This document shows positions 5,451 to 28,361 of a stretch of 64,000 nucleotides of DNA, piece after piece; position 1 is the stretch's first letter, and each line of letters opens with the position of its first letter. A program made the translations under genes and the position numbers. Below the pieces are notes generated by a model, which had not been told where the DNA came from, did not search any database, and worked only from the letters and a program-made list of their open reading frames with translations. The DNA is taken from the NCBI GenBank assembly GCA_964356815.1, contig CAYHIR010000004.1, forward strand, positions 842 to 64,841. Reading direction: 5' to 3'. This DNA is from an uncultured Candidatus Saccharibacteria bacterium. Its GTDB lineage: Bacteria; Patescibacteriota; Minisyncoccia; Phycocordibacterales; DATGWK01.

Positions 5451-5705
5451 CTACCTCACCCCCCGAAACTTCTTCCCCAACCGCTTTTCCACCGCCTCCA
5501 TTATTTTTCCACGATTCATAAAAATTTTTGCGCGTAAGGCTGACGAGCCAAGCACGATTATATCGTCGTTCTTGATGTTTATTTCCTCCGCAAGTACCCT
5601 CACTCCAATTACCTCAGAAATAACGCTGGCGATAGCGTCACGCTCTTCCAGCGCGGAAGTCAGCACGTGTTTGAACTTCGCAAAAAGTGAATCGAGTTTT
5701 ATCAT
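5451..5705 (-). CDS. Small hypothetical protein downstream of dnaN (possible DUF721/DciA-like)
   Basis: 84 aa with a 4-nt overlap onto the dnaN stop. The position after dnaN and a weak similarity pattern suggest the family; assignment is tentative. Confidence 0.35.
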   Translation of the reverse strand: MIKLDSLFAKFKHVLTSALEERDAIASVISEVIGVRVLAEEINIKNDDIIVLGSSALRAKIFMNRGKIMEAVEKRLGKKFRGVR

Positions 5706-6802
5706 CTATTCATCGGCATAACCAAACAGAGAAACGACTTATCACCCACGCCGCGAATGACGAGCGGCCGGCTAGCACCGTTGAAAGAGAAGGAAATGCT
5801 ATCGGCGTCGATCGATTGGAAACTGTCGGTGATGTATTTGTGATTGAAATTGACCGAAATGTCTTCGCCGGTAAGCACTGCATCAATCTTATTCACACTT
5901 TCCCCAAGATCTGAGTTGGTAGTTTTAATTTCTAAAGTTTTTTCTTTCGGCGATGCGTGGATGTTGGCCTGATTGAATTTATCGGAGAAAATATTGGCCA
6001 CTTTGAGCGCCTGCACCAAATCTTGCTTGAGCATTGTGGCTTCTGTTGTGCCGCTTTCGGGAATAATCTGGCGATAATCTGGAAAAACGCCATCGATGAC
6101 GCGTGAGGTGAGATAAATACTTGGGTGAGAGAAAGAAATTTGGTTTTTTGTGACAAACATCGTCACCTCACCAGAAACATCGCCGAGCAAGCGCATTATT
6201 TCTGGCACATTTTTAAATGGTACAAGTAAATGATCGCGGATTTTGTTTTTAAAACGGATTTTCTTTTCTGTGAGTCGGAATGAGTCTGTGGCTGCAAAAA
6301 CTAAATGCTCGTCGTCGGAAGCAATATACACGCTCGAGAGCTCAGGCTTCACACTCGATACAGCGGCGCTGTAATACACCGCCTTCAAACCGCTCACGAA
6401 GTCGCCCGCTTGGATTTTTATAGGCTGATCTTCTGGCACTCTCGGAATACTTGGAAAATCTTCATGTGGAAGGGTTTTAACAGTCGTCTTAGTTTTATTA
6501 CTGGTGATTTTTAGAAGATTATTTTCCGTTGTCTCAAAAATTACACTGCTGTCGCCGGTTATGCTATTTAGAAGATTGTTTAAAATCGCGCCGTGCACCG
6601 CCACCTTCCCCTCTTCCATCACTTTTGTAGGAATATTAAGCTCGAGGCCAATATCAAGATTTGTCGCTCGTACGATGAGATTGTTTTTCTCGGCTTCCAA
6701 AAGCACACAACTTAAAATAGGTAGTGAAAGATTTTTTCCTGTCACCCTTTCGGCTTGTGATATAGCTTTGCTGATTTTTTCTTTTACACATTCTATCTTC
6801 AT
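5702..6802 (-). CDS. dnaN: DNA polymerase III beta subunit (sliding clamp)
   Basis: Characteristic N-terminus MKIECVKEKISKAISQAERVTGKNLSLPILSCVLLEA. Size is 366 aa and it sits directly downstream of dnaA. Confidence 0.93.
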   Translation of the reverse strand: MKIECVKEKISKAISQAERVTGKNLSLPILSCVLLEAEKNNLIVRATNLDIGLELNIPTKVMEEGKVAVHGAILNNLLNSITGDSSVIFETTENNLLKITSNKTKTTVKTLPHEDFPSIPRVPEDQPIKIQAGDFVSGLKAVYYSAAVSSVKPELSSVYIASDDEHLVFAATDSFRLTEKKIRFKNKIRDHLLVPFKNVPEIMRLLGDVSGEVTMFVTKNQISFSHPSIYLTSRVIDGVFPDYRQIIPESGTTEATMLKQDLVQALKVANIFSDKFNQANIHASPKEKTLEIKTTNSDLGESVNKIDAVLTGEDISVNFNHKYITDSFQSIDADSISFSFNGASRPLVIRGVGDKSFLCLVMPMNR

Positions 6803-7001
6803 GGTGTGTATTCTATTTATATATAAATACTATTACTACTATTAGCTCTGTGTATATCTTGATAACCCCTGTAAAAGCCAATATTTAAGCCTTTTTTGCC
6901 GATTTTCTGTCCACAGGCATATGTGGATGAGGTGGATTTCGAAGGATAACTTTTTGTTTGGTTCATGTCGATTGGGTTTTTTGACCCGACTTTTCCGATA
7001 C

Positions 7002-7052
7002 TTATCCCCACTGTACCCTGTCTTATCCCCACTTATCCTAGACTTATCAACA
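7002..7052. promoter_or_regulatory. oriC-like cluster of four tandem DnaA-box 9-mers: TTATCCCCA x2, TTATCCTAG, TTATCAACA
   Basis: Same-orientation 9-mers start at 7002, 7023, 7033 and 7044 with ~10-11 bp phasing. They lie in the dnaN-dnaA intergenic region next to the AT-rich stretch 6810..6845. The 13-mer CATGTTGATAAGT also occurs inverted at 8578..8590 upstream of dnaA. Confidence 0.6.
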
Positions 7053-7080
7053 TGTTTTTCCAGAGAAACGGCCGAGCCGG

Positions 7081-8520
7081 TCAAGAAATCATCGATCGAA
7101 TCTGACTAATTTCCTGCCCAAGCGCCGAATTGTTCTTTAGGTCGTTCTTGATTTTTTCACATGAATGAATGACGGTGGTATGATCTCGGCCACCCATCTT
7201 CTCGCCGATCGAAGGATAAGAGATGCTAAAGTCTTCGCGCAAAATGTACATGCTTATTTGCCGTGGCTTTATCACCTCCTTCTTTCGAGTCTTCTCATAT
7301 ATAGAGTCTTCTTCTATATTGTAGAAGTCGGCGACGATTTTTACCACCTCCTTTGGCGAAAGGACCTTTTTCATCGGTTTATTGGTGTTTTTGATGAGGT
7401 TTTTTACCTCTTGAAGGGTTGGTTCTTGGCCTTTCATTTGTGTCTGCATCACAATGGCGTTCAAAGCACCTTCAAGCTCGCGAATATTTGTGACTACAGA
7501 AGCGGCGAGAAAGTCGATTACCTCTGGTGAGACGGAAAGATTTTGAGACAAAAGCTTGTTTTTGAGAATGGCCACACGAGATTCATGATCTGGTGCTGGA
7601 ATATCGACAATCATACCCGCGTGAAAGCGTGAACGAAGACGATCCTCAAGATTTGGAATGTAATTTGGGTGCTTGTCTGATGAGAAAATGATTTGTTTGT
7701 TGTTGTCATGCAAATAATTGAACAGATGGAAAAGCTCCTCTTGGGTTTTCTCAGTTTTTGAGAGGAATTGAATGTCGTCCATGATTAAAACATCATATTT
7801 TCGGTATTTTTCCTTGAAATTGTTTACTTTATTGGAAATACCCTGCGCGCCTTGGCCAGAGTGAACAGAATTTATGTAGTCGGTGGCAAAACGCTCGGAA
7901 GTGACATAATGCACGCGCATTTCTGGGTACTGTTTTTTTATTTGATTGCCGATAGCTTGTATGAGATGGGTTTTGCCGTGGCCAGTGCTTCCATATATAA
8001 AGACCGGATTGTAGACAATACCAGGCTTTTTGATAACAGCCTGCGCGGCGGCGTGAGCCAGCTCGTTGAAAGGGCCAACGACGAAAGAATCGAAGGTGTA
8101 GCGCGGATTGAGGCCATCTTCTTTATTTATATAATGGTCGGCTAGAGGCAATTCCCCACTGGCAGATGTGGCGATATCTGAATTAATGTTTGAATTTAGG
8201 CCATTTATGCCACTTGAGCCGCCATGCGAAACCCCACTACCATATTGGTCTGTAGATGGTTTTCTTCGCACATCTTCTCGGCTGATTATGTATTCCACAG
8301 AACGAATGAGTGGCGACTGGTCTCGAAGGGATCGAAGGATGGACGAGTGGTACTTTTTAAGGAGCCAATCTTTGACGAAATTGTTGGGCACATTCACAAA
8401 CACCACTCCATCTTCTTGGTGGGATATGCCGGTGTCTTTAAACCAAGTGGCAAAGCTAGGCTTGGAAACGGAGAGCTCCATTTCTACCAACACACTATCC
8501 CAAAGTTTTTTAGTATCCAT
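7081..8520 (-). CDS. dnaA: Chromosomal replication initiator protein DnaA
   Basis: AAA+ Walker A GSTGHGKTHL. C-terminal DNA-binding region HTTVIHSCEKI. Size is 479 aa. Confidence 0.95.
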   Translation of the reverse strand: MDTKKLWDSVLVEMELSVSKPSFATWFKDTGISHQEDGVVFVNVPNNFVKDWLLKKYHSSILRSLRDQSPLIRSVEYIISREDVRRKPSTDQYGSGVSHGGSSGINGLNSNINSDIATSASGELPLADHYINKEDGLNPRYTFDSFVVGPFNELAHAAAQAVIKKPGIVYNPVFIYGSTGHGKTHLIQAIGNQIKKQYPEMRVHYVTSERFATDYINSVHSGQGAQGISNKVNNFKEKYRKYDVLIMDDIQFLSKTEKTQEELFHLFNYLHDNNKQIIFSSDKHPNYIPNLEDRLRSRFHAGMIVDIPAPDHESRVAILKNKLLSQNLSVSPEVIDFLAASVVTNIRELEGALNAIVMQTQMKGQEPTLQEVKNLIKNTNKPMKKVLSPKEVVKIVADFYNIEEDSIYEKTRKKEVIKPRQISMYILREDFSISYPSIGEKMGGRDHTTVIHSCEKIKNDLKNNSALGQEISQIRSMIS

Positions 8521-8677
8521 GAGTCGACAAATTATATACTTGTCTCAAAATTATAGTACTTGTGGAACACCTGTCCGCATGTTGATAAGTTGTGAATAGG
8601 TTGTTGAGAGCCGAAAGTCGTTCCGCGACACGCCACTTATTGAGTTTTTTTGCAATCTAATATAGTATGGCGAGACT

Positions 8678-8812
8678 ATGTCATTCACATATAAACCAAA
8701 AAAGAGAAAACGAGCCCGCTCACACGGCTTTTTGGGTCGCCAAAAGACTGTTGGTGGAGCCAATGTTATCAAGCGTCGCCGAGCCAAAGGCCGCCGCAAG
8801 CTCTCTGTATAA
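8678..8812 (+). CDS. rpmH: 50S ribosomal protein L34
   Basis: Manual translation gives [44 protein letters not shown] (44 aa). It is absent from the ORF track because it is under 60 aa. Confidence 0.9.
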
Positions 8813-8841
8813 TCGGTCTAATTAATCGGTCTAACCGACCC

Positions 8842-9207
8842 ATGCTTTCTAAAAGCGAACGCCTCACAAAAAAGCAGGTAGAAGCTGTCTTGGCATCTGG
8901 CCGTCGACACTCTTCCGCGTACTTTTTTGCCACCGTTTTGGCCGCTCCCGTTGAATCGGCTTCAATCCCCACCTTTGCCATTGTTGTCTCTAAGAAAACT
9001 GCCGACACAGCCGTCGAGAGAAACAAACTCCGCCGCCGTACGTACAGCGCTATTCGCCAAGTAAAAAAAATTATATCCGCGCGGCCAAATGGCAAAGTCC
9101 TCCCCTTTTATGTTGTTGTAGTAGTAAAACGCGAAGCGAAGCCCGCGAAACTTCCCGATTTGATTGATGATTTGGGCCGTTTGATGAAAATTTCTGGTGT
9201 GATTTAG
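8842..9207 (+). CDS. rnpA: Ribonuclease P protein component
   Basis: Lies immediately after rpmH. The sequence is basic and begins LSKSERLTKKQVEAVLASGRR. Confidence 0.8.
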   Translation: MLSKSERLTKKQVEAVLASGRRHSSAYFFATVLAAPVESASIPTFAIVVSKKTADTAVERNKLRRRTYSAIRQVKKIISARPNGKVLPFYVVVVVKREAKPAKLPDLIDDLGRLMKISGVI

Positions 9208-9229
9208 AAAATCCAGTACAATACTATAA

Positions 9230-10033
9230 ATGATAGCTTTCTATAATACATTCATTTTCCAACCCATGTACAACGGGTTGATTTTTTTGATCGACATTTT
9301 GCCTTGGGCCGATGCTGGTGTGGCGATTATCGTTTTTACACTCATTATTAAGCTCATTCTTTTTCCTCTGTCGAAAAAGGCTGTCTACACTCAGCTAAAG
9401 ATGAAGAAAGTTGAGCCACAACTCAGAGCGATAAAGGAAAAATATAGTGGCAAGGATCAGGCGCAAGAACAGGCTAAACAAACGATGGCCTTTTACAAAC
9501 GCGAAGGCATAAGGCCATTTGCGGGAATTTTACTCATATTTATTCAGTTGCCAATACTTTTTGCTTTATACAAAGCGTTTCTCCACCCTGGTTTGCCAAA
9601 TATTGATGTCACCCTCCTCTACTCTTTCGTCATTGCACCAATGTCTGAAAGTATAAACATGCATTTTCTCGGTTTGTTTGATATCGCTGGCAAAAGCATC
9701 GCACTGGCTCTCATCGCCGCAGTCTCTACATATTTTCAAGTGCGTTTTTCTATGCCACCACTACCGCCGAAGAAAGCCACTTCTTTCGATAAAGACGGCA
9801 AGCCTATTCGGCCAAATTTTCAGGAAGATTTTGCTCGCGGTATGAACATTCAGATGAGATATGTTTTTCCGGTGATTGCCTTTTTTATTTCCTGGAGTAT
9901 TTCTGGTGCCATCGCTCTCTATTGGATCACGAGCAATCTTTTCACCATCGCTCAAGAGTTAGTGATTCGAAAAAGTTTTGCGCGTAACGAGAGTCGCGCC
10001 GAAGCTAAGAAAAATTTAAATCCCGCTGTCTAA
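9230..10033 (+). CDS. yidC: YidC/Oxa1-family membrane protein insertase (short form)
   Basis: rpmH-rnpA-yidC synteny. Multiple TM helices. Region KEKYSGKDQAQEQAKQTMAFYKREGIRPFAG is typical of YidC. Confidence 0.85.
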   Translation: MIAFYNTFIFQPMYNGLIFLIDILPWADAGVAIIVFTLIIKLILFPLSKKAVYTQLKMKKVEPQLRAIKEKYSGKDQAQEQAKQTMAFYKREGIRPFAGILLIFIQLPILFALYKAFLHPGLPNIDVTLLYSFVIAPMSESINMHFLGLFDIAGKSIALALIAAVSTYFQVRFSMPPLPPKKATSFDKDGKPIRPNFQEDFARGMNIQMRYVFPVIAFFISWSISGAIALYWITSNLFTIAQELVIRKSFARNESRAEAKKNLNPAV

Positions 10034-11313: not shown

Positions 11314-12768
11314 TTAATTATTTGTTGGCGGAGCGGGCGTCGTGCTCGGGTCGAGGGTTGTCGTCAAAATATTTGGATCAATTGTGTTTAAAATGAGCCA
11401 AGAGCCGATCGCGAGGAGCAAACCGATAATAGCCTGATTGATTTTTTCTTTGCCGGCGGATTTGTTGCTGATGACGTCTGTTGTCATGTATTCAAGACCG
11501 CCGATGATGATCATAATCACTGCCAATACTGCCGCCGCGCCGATGAGAAAACGAAACATGGCCATGACGTATGTAGAGAAATCACTAATTTTATAGTCGC
11601 CGGTGGCGGCATTAAACAGGCCTGGCAATGGCACGAGCGGCTCGTACTCAAGCTGGTTTCCTTGAGCCAAGGCTGTTTGAGCGCCTAAAAATTTGTTCAA
11701 ATAACTTTTCTCGGGCAACAAACTCGTCTCACCGCCAGCGTTTTCAGCCGATTTAAATTCAATCGTAAACGGCGCGTCTGCTCCTTGGAGGTAATTGGTT
11801 TTGTGGCGGGCACTCACGCGCACAGAAGCTGAGCCACCGCCCTCGGCTGGTGCTCGGAAGACCACTTCATTGCTCTTCTGCGCGGTCTTTACACTGTTTT
11901 GAGTCCATGAGAAGTCGATATTGTTTGTGTCGTTGTCGTTTGTGGCAGTAAAGAAAAACGGCATGGCGGTGAACGTTGCCTCTGAGCGATCTTCAAAAGA
12001 AAAACTCCGGCCGTTCAAAGCACGCTCCATGCGTAGGCCGTAAAGCGGGCTGTTTTCGTATACCAAAAGCTTCGGGGAGACTTCAGAGACGACGGTTTTG
12101 CCAACGCCGCTGTATTCCCCACCTGTAGAAGACACTTCCACCTCCACTTCTATCGGCTTAGAGAGGACAGAAGGCACGACAGAGAAAGTTTTTCGGCCAT
12201 AGCCAGACGCCGCTTGCACGAGTGTGCCGTTTTGTTTCCATTTATACACGAGATTGGCGGAGTTGACCCTCACACCTTGAGTGGTAAGGAAAAACGGCTC
12301 AGCGACGACAGTCACGCGATCTTGATTGGAATGGAGAGCCTTACCTTCATATAGAGGAGGCACATACGAGCTGGCTTGCCAAAGCATGTCTATTTCCGCA
12401 GGGCGGATAGGAACGGTCTGCGATACTCCATCTATTGAAACGGTGACGTCTGAGACAGTACCCAATGCACCGGTAGTGAAGCTGTAGGTCTTCAAGCCCA
12501 CACCTCTCGCCGCTACTCTTCCACCTTGCGACCAAGAAATGTTCAAACCATTTATGTCGCGGGCGAAATCTTCCACCGTAACGCTAACTTTTTCAAAAGC
12601 TTTTGGATAACGCGGCATTACAGTTACTCGCATCGCCTGGCCTTCGGTGGCGTCTATGAAATCGAATTGGGCCCTCGCTATTTGTGGACTAAATTGCGGC
12701 GCAAAAGTGGTAAAAGCGGCAAAAACTAGAGCAACGCCCACAATGCCCAATAGATTTCTATAAAACAT
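11314..12768 (-). CDS. Secreted protein with C-terminal two-helix, VirB2/TrbC pilin-like, membrane module
   Basis: N-terminal signal peptide. The C-terminus carries two hydrophobic helices (AMFRFLIGAAAVLAVIMIIIGGLEY and AIIGLLLAIGSWLILNTI) separated by a short polar loop. Confidence 0.45.
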   Translation of the reverse strand: MFYRNLLGIVGVALVFAAFTTFAPQFSPQIARAQFDFIDATEGQAMRVTVMPRYPKAFEKVSVTVEDFARDINGLNISWSQGGRVAARGVGLKTYSFTTGALGTVSDVTVSIDGVSQTVPIRPAEIDMLWQASSYVPPLYEGKALHSNQDRVTVVAEPFFLTTQGVRVNSANLVYKWKQNGTLVQAASGYGRKTFSVVPSVLSKPIEVEVEVSSTGGEYSGVGKTVVSEVSPKLLVYENSPLYGLRMERALNGRSFSFEDRSEATFTAMPFFFTATNDNDTNNIDFSWTQNSVKTAQKSNEVVFRAPAEGGGSASVRVSARHKTNYLQGADAPFTIEFKSAENAGGETSLLPEKSYLNKFLGAQTALAQGNQLEYEPLVPLPGLFNAATGDYKISDFSTYVMAMFRFLIGAAAVLAVIMIIIGGLEYMTTDVISNKSAGKEKINQAIIGLLLAIGSWLILNTIDPNILTTTLDPSTTPAPPTNN

Positions 12769-12827: not shown

Positions 12828-13373
12828 TTATTTTATGTATTTTAGTATCCCGGCACCTCTCAATTCCTCCAAAGCCAAATTAAATAACCTAACAATTTTC
12901 TTTTCGTGATGGTGGGCCATAAGTACGAAAATGGTCGCGATTGGAAAGATCTTAAAAAATGGTATGAATTCTATAATTATGACTACGACATATCTTTTCC
13001 AAAGCCAACGAATTATATATTTTTTCCAAAAACGACCTTTCAATTTACCTAAGCACCAAATGAACATGGTAATTGCGAATATAAAGGAAAATATTGTAGT
13101 CAAAATAATGCCGACAATAGAAAGGTCTAGGGAATCTAATACATCTTTTAATATCGCCGCCATTAACATGAGATAAGGGAAGTTTGGTTCTTCTGGTGGA
13201 TCTTCGACGATTAGTTCTTCGTCACCGTCTTCAAAATTCTCACCCTTATCGTTAAATATTTCTCGTACTCTTCCTAATATTCTTTGAAGTTCTTGTGTTT
13301 TTATATTTCCAGGTGCACGATATGCCGGTACAGCGGATGCTACCTCCTCTCCATTTTGTAAGTTTTCATCCAT
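12828..13373 (-). CDS. Hypothetical membrane protein
   Basis: Acidic N-terminus followed by two to three TM helices. Confidence 0.4.
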   Translation of the reverse strand: MDENLQNGEEVASAVPAYRAPGNIKTQELQRILGRVREIFNDKGENFEDGDEELIVEDPPEEPNFPYLMLMAAILKDVLDSLDLSIVGIILTTIFSFIFAITMFIWCLGKLKGRFWKKYIIRWLWKRYVVVIIIEFIPFFKIFPIATIFVLMAHHHEKKIVRLFNLALEELRGAGILKYIK

Positions 13374-13376
13374 AAG

Positions 13377-14138
13377 TTAAAATTCGCCGTCAATTGCTCG
13401 ATTGGTTTTCTTGCCAAGTAAAACATGAGAAATAATGTTGCCAATAATATGGATCATAAACCCGAGTAAAATATAACTGATAAATCTGGCGATCATAAAG
13501 ATGACTATACCGCCATAAGTTTGTGGAACTGTTGTAGAAATAGAGCCGCCGAGCAAAGCCTCTAGTGTCCACAACATACCAAGAGGTATATTTTCAAAGT
13601 GTGGAGTGTTGTGTTCAAAAATATAAACAAGGGTGCCTAATATTATGACAGTAAAAATGAGGGTAAAAAGGTAAATTTGCAAATTAAGTCGGATAATTGC
13701 CATTTTGTCTTCCTCGGAATGTTTTTCTAAATGTTCAAAACGAACAACTTTAGCCAAGCGCATCATTCTTAAAAAGCGGAGTATTCTCAGAGCTCGGAGT
13801 GATTTTAATGGAGTAAGGTTGGAGACGGAAAGTAATGTTGGTGTTATCGATACAAGATCAATAAGGCCAAAGAAGCTAAAGATATAAGAACTTTTTTTTG
13901 AACTCCCTACTATTCGACAAATGTATTCAACAGAAAAAATGAGAGCCGCTACGTATTCTATGATTAAGAAAATTTGATGGTAATTAGAAAACTGAGATAC
14001 GGATTCAAAAATTATCGCTAGTATTGAAATAACAATAACGATCGACAAAAAATCGTTTGTAACAACAAAAAGTCTCGAATTTGTATCGTAGAATGCTTTC
14101 CTACAAAACAGAGAGAAAGAGTGGAATATGTTTTTCAT
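13377..14138 (-). CDS. Voltage-gated ion channel family protein (single 6-TM domain, BacNaV/NaChBac-like)
   Basis: S4 voltage sensor LRALRILRFLRMMRLAKVVR, with Arg at every third position. Pore-like WTLEALLGG resembles the BacNaV TLESW filter. Size is 253 aa. Confidence 0.55.
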   Translation of the reverse strand: MKNIFHSFSLFCRKAFYDTNSRLFVVTNDFLSIVIVISILAIIFESVSQFSNYHQIFLIIEYVAALIFSVEYICRIVGSSKKSSYIFSFFGLIDLVSITPTLLSVSNLTPLKSLRALRILRFLRMMRLAKVVRFEHLEKHSEEDKMAIIRLNLQIYLFTLIFTVIILGTLVYIFEHNTPHFENIPLGMLWTLEALLGGSISTTVPQTYGGIVIFMIARFISYILLGFMIHIIGNIISHVLLGKKTNRAIDGEF

Positions 14139-14143
14139 ACATT

Positions 14144-16060
14144 TTACCCTCCCGTCGCCTCAAGCTCTTCCCTCGCCTTTTGGATGGAGAGGATTTGTGA
14201 TGGGTCGGAGGTGATGATTTGATCTTCAGTGTAAGACGCGATGGTTTTTATGGCCACGTGTTTTAAGCCGGCAAAGAAAATACCTTCGCCGACGCCAGAT
14301 TCAAGCAAAAGATATTTTTCTTCATCAGTTAGATTAAAAACTTGTTGTAGCTTGTCGATAGATGTTGGCGATTGCTTCATGAGCATTTGGATGGAAGAGT
14401 TGGTGATGATCGGCAAACCGTATGGCGATTTCAAAAAGTCGTCAACGTCTTGAGTGATTGTGGCGAGACCGAGGAAATATTTGCGACCACGTTTGGCGAG
14501 TGAGAGTAAGAAAGAAGCAGTGTCTTCAGATTTCATCATCCACCAGGCTTCGTCGATCACGAACAAACGCTTTTTTAATTCTTTGCGAATTGTGTTCCAA
14601 ATATAGTGCGTGACGATGTACATCGCGATCGGTTTGAGTTCGTCTTCCATGTCGCGGAGAGAAAAGACGACAAGTTTTTTATTGATATCAATATTCGTCG
14701 GGCGATTTATAAATCCCGACCAAGTGCCTTTAGTGTATTTTGAGAGCCGTTGTGCAAGTGATTCCCCACCTTCCATACCGGATAGGACGAGTTCGAAGTC
14801 GGACATAAGTGGCGGCTCGATATTTTGAAAATCAGATTCGGCAGTGATGTCTTTCAAGGCGTACGTCTCGGTGATCGCGCGATCCATAATGGCATCTTCT
14901 TCTGGTGTGAGGCCGCCCATCATCAAGCGGAAAAGGCCGATGAGATTGATGATATTTGAACGAAGAACAGACGCCGCAGATTCATCTTTGCCGGGCGGCG
15001 CGAGATCAAATGGGTTGATATGATGCTCAGAATTGAGAGAGATTTTAAAATATCGGCCGCCGACAGTCTCTGCCAAATATTCATATTCCCTTTCTGGATC
15101 GAGCACAATAACTTCTGTGTCGAACATCAGCGTGCGAATGATTTCGAGCTTCGTGGCATAAGATTTTCCGGCGCCAGACTTGGCGAAAGTGATGGAATTG
15201 TAATTTTCCAAAGAGAAACGATCGAAAAGCACGAGGCTGGAATTGTGGCGATTGATGCCGTAAAGCACGCCTTTGTCTGACGTGAGATCGAAAGAAATAA
15301 ATGGAAAGAGGCTCGAGAGCGGCGAGGAATTGAGCTTTGAGTGCACTTCGAGAAGATCTGTAGCGATTGGCATGACGCTTTTGAATGCCTGCTCTTGCTG
15401 GAAAAGCGCCGGCTTCACATAGACAAGTTTCGACTCAAGGATCGATTTCATTTCCGACTCTATTTTATCGAGTTCGGTTTCGTTTTCAGCATAGAGTGTG
15501 ATGTAGAGGCCAACATCGAAAAGTTTTTCTTGCGCTTGCTGAAGATTGTCGCGCAAATTTTCCAAGTCTTGATATGCCGTGTCGAGCATCGGATCGCGCA
15601 CCATGCCCTTGGCTTCCCGCTCATGTATTTGACTCTGCACCTCAGCGACCTTTTTTTGAAATTGGCGAAGAACTTTCACTGTGTCTACTGGATGAACGAA
15701 AATGGAAACGTCAAACATTTTGTCGAGATTGATGATCGGCGCAAACCAACTTTCATTTAAAAAACGCGGATATGAAATAACGAAAAATGTACGGACGAGT
15801 TTGTCGCCAAGATTCAAATCACGCGGACCAATCTTCAACGCACTCGGCGCGATAATATCTTTGAGCTCAAGAGTCTCGGCCTCATACACTTCGCGTGGCA
15901 AAAATGGCGCGACAGGAATCGGCCCGCGCTCTTTCTTTTTGAAAATGTTACTGAAGAATGACATTGTTTTTCGCCGTTTTTTACTAAACCCCCGCCGGCT
16001 CGGCGAGCTGAATCGGTTTCTCCATTTCGCCTGGGTTGAACACTTTGTACAAAAGCTCAA
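14144..16060 (-). CDS. VirB4/TraE-family type IV secretion ATPase, ATPase portion (likely start at Met 15964)
   Basis: Walker A FAKSGAGKSYATK. Walker B VIDEAWWMM. Central motif GDKLVRTFFVISYPRF is typical of the VirB4 linker. Confidence 0.8.
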   Translation of the reverse strand: MSFCTKCSTQAKWRNRFSSPSRRGFSKKRRKTMSFFSNIFKKKERGPIPVAPFLPREVYEAETLELKDIIAPSALKIGPRDLNLGDKLVRTFFVISYPRFLNESWFAPIINLDKMFDVSIFVHPVDTVKVLRQFQKKVAEVQSQIHEREAKGMVRDPMLDTAYQDLENLRDNLQQAQEKLFDVGLYITLYAENETELDKIESEMKSILESKLVYVKPALFQQEQAFKSVMPIATDLLEVHSKLNSSPLSSLFPFISFDLTSDKGVLYGINRHNSSLVLFDRFSLENYNSITFAKSGAGKSYATKLEIIRTLMFDTEVIVLDPEREYEYLAETVGGRYFKISLNSEHHINPFDLAPPGKDESAASVLRSNIINLIGLFRLMMGGLTPEEDAIMDRAITETYALKDITAESDFQNIEPPLMSDFELVLSGMEGGESLAQRLSKYTKGTWSGFINRPTNIDINKKLVVFSLRDMEDELKPIAMYIVTHYIWNTIRKELKKRLFVIDEAWWMMKSEDTASFLLSLAKRGRKYFLGLATITQDVDDFLKSPYGLPIITNSSIQMLMKQSPTSIDKLQQVFNLTDEEKYLLLESGVGEGIFFAGLKHVAIKTIASYTEDQIITSDPSQILSIQKAREELEATGG

Positions 16061-16652
16061 TCACCTCTTCTGTGCCAAGCTCAATGACGCGCACGCCACA
16101 ACGCACCAAGCCTTGCTCCACCACCGAAATTCTTTGCTCAAGCTGAGTGCGATATTCCTCGAAAAGTTCTTCACTGGCTTTGTTTTTGCTTCCACCACCG
16201 CGACCTTTGAAAAGCTGGCCAAAATCAGGCAATTTGCTCCCCGACTTAGATTGGAGCATGGCTGGAGAATACGGGATGACGATGAAAAAGTGCTTCGTCA
16301 TAATGCTCGTGCTCTCAGTGAAATTTTTGATGAAGCCAATGTATTCTTCGACTTGAATTTTCATCAAATCGTTGACCTGCTTTTTGCGCTGTTGCTCAAG
16401 GAGCGCAAGATATGGCCGAATGTCGAGACGACGCGACTGAATGAAAATTTGCACAGAAAAATCGAGCGAATTGAGAAAATCTTGGAAGGAATAGAGAATG
16501 GCTTCGCGTTCGTCGTTGGATTTTAACGAGAAATTGAGAGATGAAGCAATGACAACAGCTCGAAGTGTACCGTCTTTGAGCACCACGATGCCATCGCGGA
16601 CCTCTTTTATCGGCACAAATTCTTGCGTTGCTCCAGCTTTAGTTGTCGCCAT
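15984..16652 (-). CDS. VirB4 N-terminal domain encoded as a separate ORF
   Basis: EFVPIKEVRDGIVVLKDGTLRAVVIASSLNFSLKSNDEREAILYSFQDFLNSLDFSVQIF matches the N-terminal domain of Gram-positive VirB4 homologues. It is in a different frame from the ATPase ORF. Confidence 0.55.
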   Translation of the reverse strand: MATTKAGATQEFVPIKEVRDGIVVLKDGTLRAVVIASSLNFSLKSNDEREAILYSFQDFLNSLDFSVQIFIQSRRLDIRPYLALLEQQRKKQVNDLMKIQVEEYIGFIKNFTESTSIMTKHFFIVIPYSPAMLQSKSGSKLPDFGQLFKGRGGGSKNKASEELFEEYRTQLEQRISVVEQGLVRCGVRVIELGTEEVIELLYKVFNPGEMEKPIQLAEPAGV

Positions 16653-16692
16653 TGTTTTTGTCGCTTTATTATATCAGAACCAGCTACAAGAC

Positions 16693-17406
16693 TTATTTTA
16701 ATACTGACATATAATTTTTGAGTAAAAAGATGACCTCTTTTCGCAGGTGATTTTTGACCCAAGCTTTTTCTTTTTCATTTGGTAAAAGTTCAGCTAATCC
16801 TCGCAATATTTCATTGTCTTTGACCGCTTCCACAACCGGAATGCAATCGGCCATGTATTCTTCGATAGTCTTGCCGGTTCGAGCCTTTATCACCTCGGCA
16901 TTAATGTCCCAGTGATTTGCACCAAAAAACCAAATATCATAAATATCCCGCATAGCTGTTTCGCTTCGGGTGGTCAGAGCCGCGAGCTTGCTGGCAAAGA
17001 GATAATCTTTCTTGCCAGTAAGCATCGAGATACCAAGATATTCTTTCATTTCGTAGTGTTCTTTGATGTCTGGTATGAGATTTCGCATGCTCAATTCAAC
17101 TTTGACATTGTGATCAGTGTCGCCATAGGAGAGCAGGAAAAAGATGGTATTTTGCTTTATATAATTATCTTTGTTCTCTCCATATTTTCGGAGCATTCTG
17201 CCGATTTTTTCGTATACCAATTTTTGTGTGGCTTCATCAGTAGAGAAGAGGTCGAAGTCTAAGTCGACAGAAAATCTAGTTAGGTCATAGAAAAAGTAGG
17301 CACAGGTGCCACCTTTGAATCCAATGAGAGATGAGATAGAAGTATCGGAATAGATATCCCTCAAGATCTGTCCCATGATGAGCTGGTGTTTTTCTTTATT
17401 GAGCAT
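16693..17406 (-). CDS. AbiEii/AbiGii nucleotidyltransferase toxin (type IV TA)
   Basis: Motif GFKGGTCAYFFYDLTRFSVDLDFDL, DUF1814-like. Overlaps the upstream gene by 11 nt. Confidence 0.7.
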   Translation of the reverse strand: MLNKEKHQLIMGQILRDIYSDTSISSLIGFKGGTCAYFFYDLTRFSVDLDFDLFSTDEATQKLVYEKIGRMLRKYGENKDNYIKQNTIFFLLSYGDTDHNVKVELSMRNLIPDIKEHYEMKEYLGISMLTGKKDYLFASKLAALTTRSETAMRDIYDIWFFGANHWDINAEVIKARTGKTIEEYMADCIPVVEAVKDNEILRGLAELLPNEKEKAWVKNHLRKEVIFLLKNYMSVLK

Positions 17407-17983
17407 GTTTTCGGTAGTTAGCCCGGTACTTTTTTAGGCGCTTTATTAATTGCTTATTATCGTAAATTTTTACAAGCTCGAAGCAGATCTCCCAGTTGAT
17501 AGATCGTAGGTTGTCAAAATAAAATTTAGGAGATAAATAAATAGTGTCGAGGAATGCTCGCTCTGGTGTGGCGATACTGTAATTCTTTTCATTTTTTATA
17601 CCAATTGCATTGTAGAGCACACCGTCTTTTAGTTTTCTGAAGGTAATCGTTTTATCGCCAACCTTTTTTGTTGTAGGATAGGGACCAGCTACGAAGATCG
17701 CAGTCTGATGTTGGAAAATAATTCCGGCTTCTCGGAGGACCGTTTCAAAGCTGATGTATGAAGGGGTATAAATACTTGTTGCGAGTTCTTTGACATCATA
17801 TTCCTTGTTCTTGGCAAAAACGCCACGAGTCAGACGGATCAGTGATCCTTGTTTGGCGTAGTATTTGATCTTTGAGAAAAGATTGACGGTATTGGTTTCC
17901 TCCCAAATTAAAGCTATATCCTTTACGGTCAAGATTGTCTTGGGGGATTCGTATAATTTGGCAATAAGGTTGTCTGCAGCCAT
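17396..17983 (-). CDS. AbiEi-family antitoxin (wHTH)
   Basis: Paired with the AbiEii gene. Motif SLIRLTRGVF is typical of AbiEi N-terminal domains. Confidence 0.6.
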   Translation of the reverse strand: MAADNLIAKLYESPKTILTVKDIALIWEETNTVNLFSKIKYYAKQGSLIRLTRGVFAKNKEYDVKELATSIYTPSYISFETVLREAGIIFQHQTAIFVAGPYPTTKKVGDKTITFRKLKDGVLYNAIGIKNEKNYSIATPERAFLDTIYLSPKFYFDNLRSINWEICFELVKIYDNKQLIKRLKKYRANYRKHAQ

Positions 17984-18076
17984 ATATTAGTATGTTTAAT
18001 GGAAAGGTGATATCTCCACCCCTCCATTGTATATTATGATGAAAATCATGTAAATATGGCTAATTTTTGATCGCTA

Positions 18077-18592
18077 TCATTCCCACCCCTCAAGCTTCGG
18101 TTTTACAAACTTGTCGCTGTTTATGTCGCTAAATTTTTTGAAGTCGTCGTCTTCATCTCGCGTCACTGGATTCAAACTTTCTTTAACGTCGAGTGTCCAT
18201 GAAAGATCGCGGAGCTTGCTCTCGGAAAGTTTTGGCACAAACACCGCATTTTTTTTCGACTCTTCCCTTTCAGCGAGCGGTTTCGGCTCATGTTTCCATA
18301 TATAGAGCTTGTCTTTCACCGCATAGTGTAGAAAAGATTCAACAGCTCGAATGAATGGCCGATTGTTTATCTTGTAAAATGCGAGCGCCGTACCAAAAAC
18401 GCCTAGCAAAATAATGAGTGGCACAGCGATGAGAAATGGCAAAAAAGTGTACGCAATGATACACGCACCAGCCGCACCAGCCAGGTATATAAATTGTTTG
18501 AAGGTCAACGGTCCGATGACCTTATCCTCGACATCAGTGAATTGTGGAACTTGGAATCGCATTTTGTTTTGCCGCGCTCCGCGGCGATGCAC
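18077..18592 (-). CDS. PrgI-family / VirB3-like small membrane protein
   Basis: FQVPQFTDVEDKVIGPLTFKQFIYLAGAAGACIIAY, then a second TM helix. This matches PrgI (the VirB3 analogue), which is normally encoded just before VirB4. Confidence 0.6.
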   Translation of the reverse strand: MHRRGARQNKMRFQVPQFTDVEDKVIGPLTFKQFIYLAGAAGACIIAYTFLPFLIAVPLIILLGVFGTALAFYKINNRPFIRAVESFLHYAVKDKLYIWKHEPKPLAEREESKKNAVFVPKLSESKLRDLSWTLDVKESLNPVTRDEDDDFKKFSDINSDKFVKPKLEGWE

Positions 18593-25271: not shown

Positions 25272-25514
25272 ATGTTAAACAACAAATTATTCTTTAATTT
25301 GCCCGTCGTCATTACTAAGCAAAATAAGCATTTTGTGGCGTATACTCCTGCACTCGATATTTCCACTTCTGGTAAATCTGAAAAGGATGTCAAAAAAAGG
25401 TTTGTTGAGCTGGTGAATATTTTTTTAGAGGAAATTATTGAGAAAAAAACTGTCGACGGCGTGCTTTATGAGTTGGGTTGGGAAAAAGAATATCTAAAAG
25501 CTATCTCGAGGTAA
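25272..25514 (+). CDS. HicB-like (UPF0150) small protein, putative antitoxin
   Basis: The start was moved to an internal Met. HFVAYTPALDISTSGKSEKDVKKRFVELVNIFLEE resembles the HicB fold consensus. No HicA partner is seen. Confidence 0.3.
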   Translation: MLNNKLFFNLPVVITKQNKHFVAYTPALDISTSGKSEKDVKKRFVELVNIFLEEIIEKKTVDGVLYELGWEKEYLKAISR

Positions 25515-26360
25515 TTTTTCCAGTAAGAGTTTCCAATCATTAAGATTCAAATCTTCAGCACGAGAATTTTCGTCTAGTCCAGACTCAGTAAAGATTTTTT
25601 CCAAATTTTCTTTTGCCGCAATTTCTTCCAAATTTCTAATCAACTTTTTTCTTTTGTGGGCAAAGCCGGCATGAAGTATTTCGAAAAATTTTTCTTCTGT
25701 GCCCGTTGTGCTGCTTGCGCCGCCAAATTCAAAAAACTTTTTAGAGATGTCGGCGATGAGCAAAATTGCAGAGTCAACATTTGGTGCTGGAGAAAAATCT
25801 TCGCGCTTCACAATCGCTATACGTTTCGGCACTCCGTATGCGCGTACTGCGAGTGAGAGCAAACTTCCCTTTCCGTCATGAGCGACGATGCGATCGGCAA
25901 CTTCTCTTTGCACCAAAAGTACCGCGCGGGATGGCTGACAGTCGCCCGACAAAAAATTGCGAATGATTTGACCGGTGATGTAATACGGAATGTTGGCAAC
26001 GAGTTTGTAACGACCAGCTTCGAGTCCGAGTGTTTGCGGTTTGGTTTCTAAAATGTCGCCGCCGGTGAGCTCCAAACGACCGTTCGCAATTTCCGTCGAA
26101 AATTTTTGTCGCAAAAATTCTACGAGCTCACCGTCTTTTTCTACAGCCACCACTCGCGCACCAGCTTCGAGTAGAAATTGTGTGAGTGCACCTTTGCCTG
26201 GTCCGATTTCTAAAATTTTTTCGCCAATCTCGCCACCATTTTCTTCGCCAGTTGCCTGCCCTATCGGATTTATTTCAGCCGCTAAAATAATTTGTCGCAG
26301 AGCGCGTTTTGATTTCAAAAAATTTTGTCCGAGGGTTTTATTTGCTTTGTGCGGGCGCAT
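25494..26360 (-). CDS. rsmA: 16S rRNA (adenine1518/1519-N6)-dimethyltransferase
   Basis: GQNFL motif and SAM-binding ILEIGPGKGALT. Size is 288 aa. Confidence 0.9.
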   Translation of the reverse strand: MRPHKANKTLGQNFLKSKRALRQIILAAEINPIGQATGEENGGEIGEKILEIGPGKGALTQFLLEAGARVVAVEKDGELVEFLRQKFSTEIANGRLELTGGDILETKPQTLGLEAGRYKLVANIPYYITGQIIRNFLSGDCQPSRAVLLVQREVADRIVAHDGKGSLLSLAVRAYGVPKRIAIVKREDFSPAPNVDSAILLIADISKKFFEFGGASSTTGTEEKFFEILHAGFAHKRKKLIRNLEEIAAKENLEKIFTESGLDENSRAEDLNLNDWKLLLEKLPRDSF

Positions 26361-26393
26361 GTTTTTTTTGCGGCGAAAAATTTCGCCGGCGGT

Positions 26394-28361
26394 TTAAAAA
26401 TATATTGTCTTAAGCGGCCGGCCGCCATCGCGCGGCTTGGTCACAAATTCCATCTCAGTGTGCTCCGGCGGAACATCAGAAAGAAATCGTGAGGGCAGAG
26501 TGGTGCGGCGTTCGCCAAAGATCGTGCGCATCGTAGCATAAGAAAGGAAAACTTTGTGCCTCGCACGCGTGAGAGCGACGTAAAAAAGTCGGCGTTCTTC
26601 CTCGGCCTCTTGCGAGCTGTCGCCCCTTGAGCTCGAGCGTTCGTGCGGGAACAAACCCTCTTCGAGACCCGTCACAAAAACATAATCAAACTCTAATCCT
26701 TTGGCGGCATGAACGGTCATTAAGCGCACAGCATCTGAGGCTACTTCGCCCGGCGTTTCTTCGGCGGCGGCGAGTGATGCGTCGGCGATCAGGAGCTCGA
26801 TTCCCTCGCCGATTGGTTCGCGGTCGTATCTTTTTGCGAGGGTAAGAAGTTCGCGGGCATTTTCGAGTCGCTCTTTATCTTGTTCGCTTCCGTGCTCAAG
26901 CAAATTTTCCATACCGCTTTCTTTGAGTACGAAGCGAATTGTTTCTGTCGGTGTTTGTGTTTGCGCCACAACTTTTATTCTTTCAAGTAGAGCGTAAAAG
27001 TTCTCTACTTTGGCGCGAAGTGTCGCTGAAAGCGCGGCTGTTTGTCCGGCCCAAATTTTTTCTAAAGTTTTGTCGCCAATGCCACGCGGAGGCACGTTTA
27101 TAATGCGTTCAACATCTCCTGGTGCGCCGCCATTTAATGCCGCGCGAATAAATGCGAGCGTGTCTTTAATTTCTTTGCGTTCGAAAAATTTTGTACCGAC
27201 CATCGCGTATGGCAAACCTTCAGCCGCAAACGCTTCTTCGAGCACGCGCGATTGAAAATTTGCGCGGTACAAAACGCTCATCTCACGAAGCGCCACACCT
27301 TTTTTCTGCAACTCTTTCACTTTGTTGGTTACAAAAAAAGCTTCCTCGGCCTCACTCCAACCTTCAAATACACCGATTTTTTCGCCGGTCACATTTTTCG
27401 TAAAAAGATTTTTCTCAATACGCACTTTATTTTTTTTGATGACGCTGTTGGCCGCCGCGAGAATTGTTTGTGTCGAGCGATAATTTTCTTCGAGTAAAAT
27501 AATTGTCGACTCAGGGTAATCTTTTTCGAAACGCATCATGTTGCTCATGTCTGCACCGCGCCAACTGTAAATATTTTGGTCCGTGTCGCCCACCGCGCAG
27601 ATGTTGTGGTGTTTGTCGGCGAGCAAAGAAACAATTTTGTACTGCACAGAATTTATATCCTGATACTCATCGATGTGAATATATTGCCAACGTTTCTGAT
27701 AGTACTCGCGCACTTCTAAATTTTTTTCTAAAAGTTTGGCAGTGACCAAAAGCAAGTCGTCGAAGTCGACAGCTTTTTCTTCGCGCAGTCGTGCCTCATA
27801 TTTTGGCCAAATCTGCGCTACGAGTCGCGGGAAAAATTCATTATTTACTCGCGTCGCGTATTGATCGGCCGTTACACAATTGCCTTTTTCGCGAGAAATG
27901 AAATGGAGAATTTTCGCTGGGTCGTTTTGCTTCGGGTCGAGGCCAAGAGAATTTAGAATATCTTTAACAATTCTTTTGCCGTCACCTGTATCATAAATGC
28001 TGAAAAAGCGTGGTAGGCCAATGAGCTCGGCTTGTTGCCTCATTATATGAACGCCCAGAGCATGAAAAGTGCTGACGAACGGGACAGGATGATGGTGTCG
28101 TGCGCGATCCTCCTCCGGGATGGATTTGTCGACAAGCATCCCCTCGATTCGCTCTTTCATCTCCCTGGCGGCCTTATTTGTGAAGGTGATGGCGAGAATA
28201 TTTCCCGGCGAGACACCTTTTTTAATGAGATGGAACATGCGGTGTGTGAGTGTTTTGGTTTTGCCCGCACCTGCTCCGGCCACGATGAGCACTGGGCCGT
28301 CGGTAGCCAAAACTGCTTCGAGTTGTTTGTCGTTTAGGTTGTGGAGGTGGGGTTCGTTCAT
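26394..28361 (-). CDS. pcrA: ATP-dependent DNA helicase PcrA/UvrD family
   Basis: Walker A AGAGAGKTKTLTHR. UvrD helicase motifs throughout. Size is 655 aa. Confidence 0.9.
   Translation of the reverse strand: MNEPHLHNLNDKQLEAVLATDGPVLIVAGAGAGKTKTLTHRMFHLIKKGVSPGNILAITFTNKAAREMKERIEGMLVDKSIPEEDRARHHHPVPFVSTFHALGVHIMRQQAELIGLPRFFSIYDTGDGKRIVKDILNSLGLDPKQNDPAKILHFISREKGNCVTADQYATRVNNEFFPRLVAQIWPKYEARLREEKAVDFDDLLLVTAKLLEKNLEVREYYQKRWQYIHIDEYQDINSVQYKIVSLLADKHHNICAVGDTDQNIYSWRGADMSNMMRFEKDYPESTIILLEENYRSTQTILAAANSVIKKNKVRIEKNLFTKNVTGEKIGVFEGWSEAEEAFFVTNKVKELQKKGVALREMSVLYRANFQSRVLEEAFAAEGLPYAMVGTKFFERKEIKDTLAFIRAALNGGAPGDVERIINVPPRGIGDKTLEKIWAGQTAALSATLRAKVENFYALLERIKVVAQTQTPTETIRFVLKESGMENLLEHGSEQDKERLENARELLTLAKRYDREPIGEGIELLIADASLAAAEETPGEVASDAVRLMTVHAAKGLEFDYVFVTGLEEGLFPHERSSSRGDSSQEAEEERRLFYVALTRARHKVFLSYATMRTIFGERRTTLPSRFLSDVPPEHTEMEFVTKPRDGGRPLKTIYF

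Follow-up and report, generated by a model that had tools for sequence, protein, structure and literature searches.

A compact AbiE toxin-antitoxin cassette, very probably acquired horizontally, between the PrgI-like and trsD genes of a chromosomal type IV secretion locus in Patescibacteria

Why should a toxin-antitoxin gene pair lie between two genes of a secretion apparatus that are ordinarily neighbors? The question is raised by a 64,000-nucleotide stretch of contig CAYHIR010000004.1 (hereafter the window), from an uncultured Candidatus Saccharibacteria bacterium of the Patescibacteriota, in which an AbiEi/AbiEii pair separates a PrgI/VirB3-like gene from the gene for a VirB4 N-terminal domain in a type IV secretion system (T4SS). 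The initial annotation of this stretch read the pair as a defense or addiction module embedded in a secretion operon, and proposed either a mobile origin or a stabilization of the locus. It is our conclusion that the pair is very probably a compact and self-contained AbiE cassette, horizontally acquired and inserted between the PrgI/VirB3-like gene and the trsD-virB4 genes of a chromosomal, origin-adjacent T4SS.

The observation that carries this conclusion is the arrangement of related loci. When one genome per species was scanned, 80 loci were recovered with VirB4 proteins 77-89% identical to that of the window, all of them from Patescibacteria (Paceibacteria, Zambryskibacteria, Taylorbacteria and metagenome-assembled genomes labeled "Parcubacteria"), and their gene order was read by tblastn with the window's proteins as far as the contigs reach. 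The order common to the 80 relatives is VirB6-like, hypothetical, PrgI, TrsD, VirB4 and pilin-like. PrgI and TrsD are neighbors in 78 related species, with a median of ~16 nt from the PrgI stop to the trsD start (at most ~110 nt in about 70 of the 78), as against 1,424 nt in the window, which confirms the earlier statement that the pair parts two normally adjacent genes. Furthermore, tblastn located neither AbiEi nor AbiEii within 10 kb to either side of any of the 80 related T4SS loci. Given this adjacency, and given that none of the 80 loci has AbiE, the pair is by parsimony an insertion; the PrgI-TrsD adjacency would be the ancestral state and that of the window a derived one. The arrangement seen in the window recurs in independent assemblies of the same organism (in ENA/NCBI, from Hainich H41 groundwater, and in Logan SRR32696712), and as such the insertion is not an artefact of assembly.

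Both genes are read on the minus strand. The first, abiEi (17396..17983), encodes a 195-aa antitoxin and probable autorepressor, putatively of the COG5340 type, and the second, abiEii (16693..17406), a 237-aa DUF1814 nucleotidyltransferase (NTase) toxin, residues 32-53 of which read GGTCAYFFYDLTRFSVDLDFDL; the two share the 11 nt from 17396 to 17406, and these limits and the overlap are exactly those first reported. The family assignment was likewise upheld by clear profile matches. AbiEii matches Pfam PF08843 with 60.3 bits (cutoff 22.5; E 3.5e-16) and the PADLOC AbiEii model PDLC02324 over its full length (E 2e-67), with 18 other AbiEii models also matching. AbiEi matches the PADLOC model PDLC02255 over residues 4-185 (E 3.2e-55; 186 model positions) together with 10 further AbiEi models, and its N-terminal part reaches 30.4 bits against NCBIfam TAA_AbiEi (E 2.8e-7), below the cutoff of 150. 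Homologues of AbiEi carry the JGI label "predicted transcriptional regulator of viral defense system", and AbiEi stands directly upstream of AbiEii in all of ~90 loci. A distant AbiEi homologue on the Aliarcobacter plasmid pAFAEC also lies directly upstream of an annotated AbiEii, which supports a cognate pairing of the 195-aa and 237-aa proteins. One part of the original label calls for revision: the pair is AbiE, and its designation as type IV follows an older classification, AbiE having been reclassified as type VII on the grounds of antitoxin-induced auto-phosphorylation of the toxin (Arrowsmith et al. 2026, preprint, 10.64898/2026.01.19.700257).

Outside the window the same cassette is found in many settings. 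At E ≤ 1e-10 the homologues of AbiEii fall into 1,933 clusters, the best 120 of which are 80-100% identical; proteins of 80-88% identity are named from Paceibacterota, Uhrbacteria, Magasanikbacteria, Kaiserbacteria, Nomurabacteria and Minisyncoccia, and the homologues of AbiEi show the same spread. Across the classes of Patescibacteria the cassette copies are 80-91% identical in protein, and in all other genomes examined abiEi and abiEii occur together, with the 11-nt overlap kept and with differing neighborhoods. We distinguished at least 67 distinct, unrelated chromosomal contexts in other Patescibacteria, the immediate neighbors being as diverse as histidine kinases, ABC transporters, RadC, DprA and methyltransferases. 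The proportion of synonymous differences (pS) is lower for the cassette (0.60-0.71) than for the host T4SS genes virB4 and trsD against their closest relatives (0.78-0.94), and this, along with the occurrence of close proteins in many lineages, points to horizontal spread. The cassette is very probably a horizontally acquired member of a Patescibacteria-specific subfamily. The suggestion of a mobile origin consequently holds for the cassette, with its 67 or more unrelated contexts, and fails for the T4SS locus, which is chromosomal, near dnaA and dnaN, and syntenic across 80 species. A recent transfer is not supportable, as the synonymous sites of the cassette are near saturation and those of the host genes fully saturated. 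With regard to possible vehicles, two scans of IMG/VR found no relatives of the cassette, and carriage by phage was rejected; plasmid matches to the cassette proteins are at most 31% identical.

The cassette is also well delimited. It extends from ~18065 to 16693 (~1.4 kb) and comprises a promoter, an inverted repeat and two genes, and DNA homology among the copies (~80%) runs from ~70 nt upstream of the abiEi ATG exactly to the abiEii stop codon. The promoter (18026..18054, minus strand) has a -35 box TTTACA (18054-18049), a 17-nt spacer and a -10 box TACAAT (18031-18026); it is the best sigma-70-like site in the region, with 10 of 12 matches, and the layout TTGACT-17-TACAAT is kept nearly invariant in 59 distinct cassette copies. 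An inverted repeat (17998..18028, minus strand) with 12-nt arms, AATGGAGGGGTG-N7-CACCTTTCCATT, coincides in part with the -10 box and with the expected start of transcription, the whole 31 bp being AATGGAGGGGTGGAGATATCACCTTTCCATT. In the 59 distinct promoters 94.4% of arm positions are complementary, versus 39-59% when the partner arm is slid, and two divergent copies (L153 and L161) have compensatory changes at three arm pairs. Because the left arm covers the -10 box and precedes the expected start, an RNA hairpin is an unlikely reading, and an operator in the DNA, bound by a dimeric winged-helix repressor, would fit better; arm positions that form G-T "wobble" pairs are read here as imperfect symmetry. 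We regard the repeat as the probable operator of AbiEi. The left junction (18055..18076, minus strand) comprises the 22 nt from the PrgI stop codon to the -35 box, within which the likeness to other cassette copies sets in near 18065 (AATTAGCC), and the right junction (16653..16692, minus strand) the 40 nt from the AbiEii stop codon to the trsD ATG. The two genes are the only ones in the cassette, neither encodes a recombinase, and the unit brings no terminator; the cassette is not an autonomous mobile element of any recognized kind, be it insertion sequence, transposon, integron cassette, prophage or plasmid.

Some copies share features beyond these limits. A recurrent terminator-like hairpin, GGCACGTTT(N)CCC(T)AAAAACGTGCC followed by TTTTC, lies upstream of the cassette at varying distances in L096, L098, L107, L113, L151, L152 and L172, and ~10 cassette loci share a downstream gene beginning ...KRYLKKFEIVETEVELPIQGQVRDP; in light of these two features, part of the family may sit at a conserved and vertically inherited site. 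In 18 of 56 distinct loci (among them L094, L096, L097, L101, L132, L135 and L156) an exact DnaA-box core, TTATCCAC, is placed 13 nt upstream of the cassette's -35 box, with ~0.005 expected per sequence; the copy in the window has no such box. A second TTATCCAC-N13-TTGACTGG occurs ~75 nt downstream of abiEii in L135, L136 and L144. We rejected TTATCCAC-N13-TTGAC as a general promoter layout of Patescibacteria (1 of 81 boxes in T4SS loci), and likewise the notion that cassettes generally lie close to dnaA, since dnaN was nearby only in L116.

With respect to composition, the cassette has a GC content of 0.39 and a GC at third codon positions of 0.42-0.45, as compared with 0.455-0.47 and 0.49-0.53 in the flanking T4SS genes. 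The GC discontinuity that the initial annotation suggested looking for is present but modest (0.39 versus 0.44 for the window). Across 50 loci the GC of the cassette varies less (standard deviation 0.024) than that of its flanks (0.052) and tracks it in part (r = 0.67), a pattern that fits a travelling module partly adapting to each host.

A number of observations weigh against the reading of a horizontally acquired insertion or against the identity and function ascribed to its genes. The genomes that lack the insertion are distant, the synonymous sites of virB4 and trsD being saturated even against the closest relatives; no strain-level empty site was seen among the related loci compared. The window mean of 0.44 in GC has a standard deviation of 0.045 among open reading frames (ORFs), and the dip at the cassette amounts to only about one such deviation. 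There are no convincing terminal or flanking repeats. An imperfect direct repeat, AGCGATCAAAAA (18064-18075) and AGCGACAAAAA (16655-16665), flanks the inserted segment, and as a candidate target-site duplication, AGCGA(T)CAAAAA, it is not significant, for the window holds 14 similar 11-mers at no more than one mismatch. In sum, no recombinase, terminal repeats or significant target duplication was found by which the cassette could have moved. On the protein side, AbiEi has no match in a Pfam profile search and none in the PDB by sequence or profile, and its AlphaFold model, from a shallow alignment, has a mean predicted local distance difference test (pLDDT) of 46.5, too low to support a fold assignment such as the N-terminal winged helix-turn-helix of AbiEi/COG5340 antitoxins; its identity rests on the PADLOC profiles and on its conserved pairing with AbiEii. 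Toxicity, antitoxicity, operator binding and a defense phenotype are all properties that we infer from homologues. Last, conservation as strong as that described below is unusual for a defense system, and the module could have another role.

The catalytic motifs of AbiEii are all present and intact. The four NTase motifs, given as hG[G/S], RxxxDhD, KLxAaxxR and +DxxD (Dy et al. 2014, PMC3985639), are present as G32-G33, R44-x-S46-x-D48-x-D50, K140-x6-R147 and R153-D154-x-x-D157, and all of these residues are invariant or at least 90% conserved among 27 homologues. Every residue essential in Streptococcus agalactiae AbiEii has an equivalent here (G49 as G32; R63/D67/D69 as R44/D48/D50; K173/R180 as K140/R147), and the +DxxD of its motif IV corresponds to R153-D154-I-Y-D157. 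The phospho-acceptor, a Ser or Thr that follows the motif II Arg and precedes the first Asp (S. agalactiae AbiEii has T65 and MenT3 has S78; 10.64898/2026.01.19.700257), has its counterpart in S46, as R44-F-S46-V-D48 has the spacing of R63-x-T65-x-D67 and the serine is invariant among aligned homologues. Between the window copy and other copies the ratio of nonsynonymous to synonymous substitution (dN/dS) is 0.043 for AbiEii and 0.060 for AbiEi, with synonymous sites near saturation (pS as given above). As these ratios are ~0.05, and as the promoter and inverted repeat are far more conserved than the synonymous sites of abiEi and abiEii, the module is evidently under strong purifying selection, which in turn argues for a retained function. 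By analogy with characterized systems, AbiEi would repress abiEi-abiEii by binding the inverted repeat at the -10 box and transcription start, and its C-terminal domain would neutralize AbiEii, probably through induced auto-phosphorylation of S46. Free AbiEii would be expected to add nucleotides to tRNA 3' ends and thereby arrest translation, and this arrest could lead to abortive-infection defense or to an addiction-like persistence.

Comparison with the AbiE systems of S. agalactiae and Lactococcus lactis reveals both likenesses and departures. The pair in the window shares with them its bicistronic organization, with the antitoxin first, overlapping genes and inverted repeats in the promoter, the S. 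agalactiae AbiEi being known to repress its own promoter through such repeats (Dy et al. 2014, PMC3985639); it shares likewise the DUF1814 motifs I-IV, in which the first catalytic Asp has a Ser/Thr at the second position ahead of it (S46 in the window, T65 in S. agalactiae), and an antitoxin of ~200 aa, putatively of the COG5340 type. In contrast, sequence similarity to those systems is remote: Pfam gives the toxin only 60 bits and does not recognize the antitoxin, which in NCBIfam stays under the cutoff. The two genes here share 11 nt, as against 4 in the known systems. The candidate operator differs as well, for it is one palindrome lying over the -10 box, its 12-nt arms set 7 nt apart, where the known systems have a pair of 23-bp repeats, or 11-bp arms separated by N27. 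The MenA-MenT systems of Mycobacterium tuberculosis (PMC7450476, PMC11375011) belong to the same toxin superfamily, and by that kinship the addition of nucleotides to the tRNA acceptor stem and an antitoxin-induced auto-phosphorylation would be expected here as well. In PDB sequence searches AbiEii had no direct match to the MenT structures. Its only PDB match is 4o8s/4ok0 (titled "Putative"), at E 3e-4 for the single protein and 1.2e-6 for a family profile, over residues 9-168 and thus including motifs I-IV, at low identity. We take these entries to be the DUF1814 NTase JHP933 of Helicobacter pylori. AbiE has been listed among the commonest defense families of groundwater bacteria and noted in a cultivated patescibacterium, and PADLOC already has dedicated models for the subfamily found in the window.

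The host locus itself bears on whether the site of insertion has any functional meaning. The PrgI/VirB3-like membrane protein (18077..18562, minus strand; PF12666, E 1.1e-11) has 161 aa from the ATG at 18562, as called in L082, although a GTG at 18592 would give the longest ORF (18077-18592), and its gene is conserved in 79 related loci. On the other side of the cassette lies a 222-aa, TrsD-like gene (15984..16652, minus strand), a separately encoded homologue of the VirB4 N-terminal domain that matches the N-terminal parts of the NCBIfam models VirB4_plasma (1.8e-10) and conju_CD1110 as well as TrsD/TraD (3.7e-5), carries a precomputed PF26593 (TraC-like) assignment, and is a separate gene in relatives also. 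As such, what was first described as a VirB4 N-domain gene is the known component TrsD and not a broken VirB4. The VirB4 ATPase (14144..15964, minus strand; 606 aa; NF045971 conju_CD1110, 374.6 bits with a cutoff of 325; PF19044) begins at the ATG at 15964, in agreement with the 606 aa called in L081, and not at the TTG at 16060, and does not overlap the 222-aa gene. The locus is flanked by dnaN (5702-6802), dnaA (7081-8520), yidC, ksgA and a UvrD helicase gene (5702-10033 and 25494-28361); it lies ~3-16 kb from dnaA/dnaN, and the cassette ~8 kb from dnaA. With these flanks and a gene order conserved in 80 species, the idea of a mobile T4SS locus was rejected.

This setting corresponds to the chromosomal, origin-proximal T4SS of Patescibacteria that is described, in the main text of Quinonero-Coronel et al. 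(2025, PMC12102498), as comprising VirB4, TrsD (there a standard component), PrgI/VirB3, VirB6-like and VirB2-like proteins, and as essential. Like that MPF-FATA-like (mating-pair formation) system, the host locus stands near dnaA/dnaN and ksgA, as is stated there for Paceibacteria, and has VirB4, TrsD, PrgI/VirB3, a VirB6-like protein and a VirB2-like pilin, with no relaxase among the ORFs scanned from 7081 to 28361. Unlike it as portrayed in that main text, the locus in the window has its PrgI-TrsD junction interrupted by AbiE, and a second insertion after virB4; the same text mentions "toxin" three times, in no case with reference to a toxin-antitoxin module between PrgI and TrsD.

The junction between PrgI and trsD has features of its own. 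Of 77 relatives, 31 have an exact TATAAT in the 40 nt that precede the trsD ATG, versus 1.6% of random windows, and 59 have a TATAAT-like box there (at least 5 of 6 positions), versus 15.8% of controls. As the box most often starts 12 or 13 nt before the ATG, the trsD leader would be very short or absent, which implies an internal promoter and a leaderless or nearly leaderless trsD-virB4 transcript in Paceibacteria. An example from a relative (L001) is the PrgI-trsD intergenic region GTGATATAATAAATCA, and in the window the interval from abiEii to trsD retains an extended -10-like box, TGATATAAT (16676-16668). On the strength of this conserved box we interpret the junction as a predicted transcription-unit boundary, with the cassette having landed upstream of the trsD promoter. 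Seven relatives have other small genes at the same junction: 23S-rRNA-IVP/bAvd-like four-helix genes (L007, L021, L022, L040, L044), a PDDEXK_3 gene (L046) and a decayed PemK/MazF toxin gene (L079). The gap between trsD and virB4 holds IVP-like genes or hairpin remnants in some relatives (among them L007, L061 and L080). The small genes at these T4SS junctions are usually flanked by long low-complexity inverted repeats, and other species keep hairpin-like remnants only. To describe the pair as embedded in an operon is consequently too strong, with a -10-like box before trsD in 59 of 77 relatives and a junction that is a recurrent spot of insertion. Taken as such a boundary, and with no terminator-like site predicted between abiEii and trsD, the junction probably received the cassette with neutral effect on T4SS expression, and the position of the cassette probably reflects tolerance and not a functional tie to secretion.

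The foremost alternative, which we nonetheless judge quite unlikely, is that AbiE is functionally integrated with the T4SS, either through promoter read-through that couples trsD-virB4 to the state of the toxin-antitoxin pair or as a module that stabilizes or polices the secretion locus. The cassette is oriented as the T4SS genes are, and as no terminator was found after abiEii, read-through from the AbiE promoter into trsD-virB4 would be possible; trsD, however, keeps its own -10 box. Two other cassette copies adjoin T4SS_pilin genes, and a general association of cassette and T4SS was at first suggested by three contexts, only to be rejected when T4SS_pilin proved to account for 2 of 107 immediate neighbors in 67 contexts, the rest being diverse, and when no copy besides that of the source organism was found in a PrgI/TrsD/VirB4 locus. 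The absence of AbiE from all 80 related T4SS loci also speaks against integration. Furthermore, a locus that is chromosomal, and reported essential in the main text of PMC12102498, would need no addiction module; the proposed stabilization is accordingly unsupported, the locus being syntenic and not a mobile element.

It is very unlikely, in our estimation, that the AbiE clade of Patescibacteria serves mainly as a regulator of growth or translation, a reversible tRNA-modifying brake of which the position is incidental, and not as a system of defense or addiction. The low dN/dS (~0.05), the 80-91% protein identity across classes, a promoter and candidate operator conserved beyond synonymous sites and the DnaA-box core that 18 of 56 copies have at a constant spacing would all be in keeping with such a role, as would the lack of an anti-phage phenotype of the S. 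agalactiae system under the conditions of the 2026 preprint (10.64898/2026.01.19.700257). Set against these are a patchy distribution and varied positions, as for an accessory mobile gene pair, the missing DnaA box of the window copy, and the place of AbiE among the common defense families of groundwater bacteria. We give a similarly slim chance to an elaboration in which the clade would be a translation brake linked to replication or growth state that here may also drive or modulate the transcription of trsD-virB4; were it true, expression of an epibiont's essential secretion ATPase would be tied to the state of a toxin-antitoxin pair. That the pair is ancestral at the junction and was lost in the other sampled lineages, or is an inactive remnant, is scarcely credible, for although the comparison genomes are all distant and the polarity is by parsimony, it would require loss in 78 of 79 species with the neighbors staying adjacent, and the homology of the cassette includes its own promoter and ends at a stop codon, with full-length genes, invariant catalytic residues and a dN/dS of ~0.05.

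The reading of a horizontally acquired cassette leaves our understanding of AbiE or T4SS function unchanged. AbiE is a well-studied family, and the pair in the window is an ordinary member of it at an insertion-tolerant spot. What is added is the exact limits of a cassette, a conserved promoter and probable operator, evidence of purifying selection, a wide dispersal with no recognizable mobility gene, and a hotspot at the PrgI-trsD junction. The cassette offers a clean and delimited example of how toxin-antitoxin pairs travel in the ultra-small bacteria of the Candidate Phyla Radiation, as a promoter, a probable operator and two genes with no recombinase, and the junction emerges as a predicted promoter-bearing boundary that, in an otherwise rigidly conserved Patescibacteria T4SS, repeatedly takes small selfish genes. 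A defined subfamily and its candidate operator sequence should also be useful for annotation, the antitoxin side being unrecognized by Pfam and NCBIfam.

Elsewhere around the locus, a probable oriC is marked by a group of near-consensus DnaA boxes (6922-7052) in the interval from dnaN to dnaA. Among the ORFs scanned from 7081 to 28361, several of which have no family match, no type IV coupling protein, integrase or transposase family was found. The second insertion in the T4SS locus (12828-14138, minus strand), between virB4 and the gene of a pilin-like 484-aa protein, consists of two genes, one of the ion-transport family (13377-14138; PF00520, E 2.9e-20) and one for an uncharacterized membrane protein of 181 aa (12828-13373). 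None of the 80 related loci has either gene, and with a GC of 0.34-0.35, versus 0.44 for the window, this pair is a stronger compositional anomaly than the AbiE cassette. The 484-aa protein (11314-12768, minus strand) is secreted or membrane-bound, the 60 residues at its C-terminus resemble a T4SS pilin domain (PF18895, E 1.5e-4, below the cutoff), and its gene lies downstream of virB4 in nearly all relatives.

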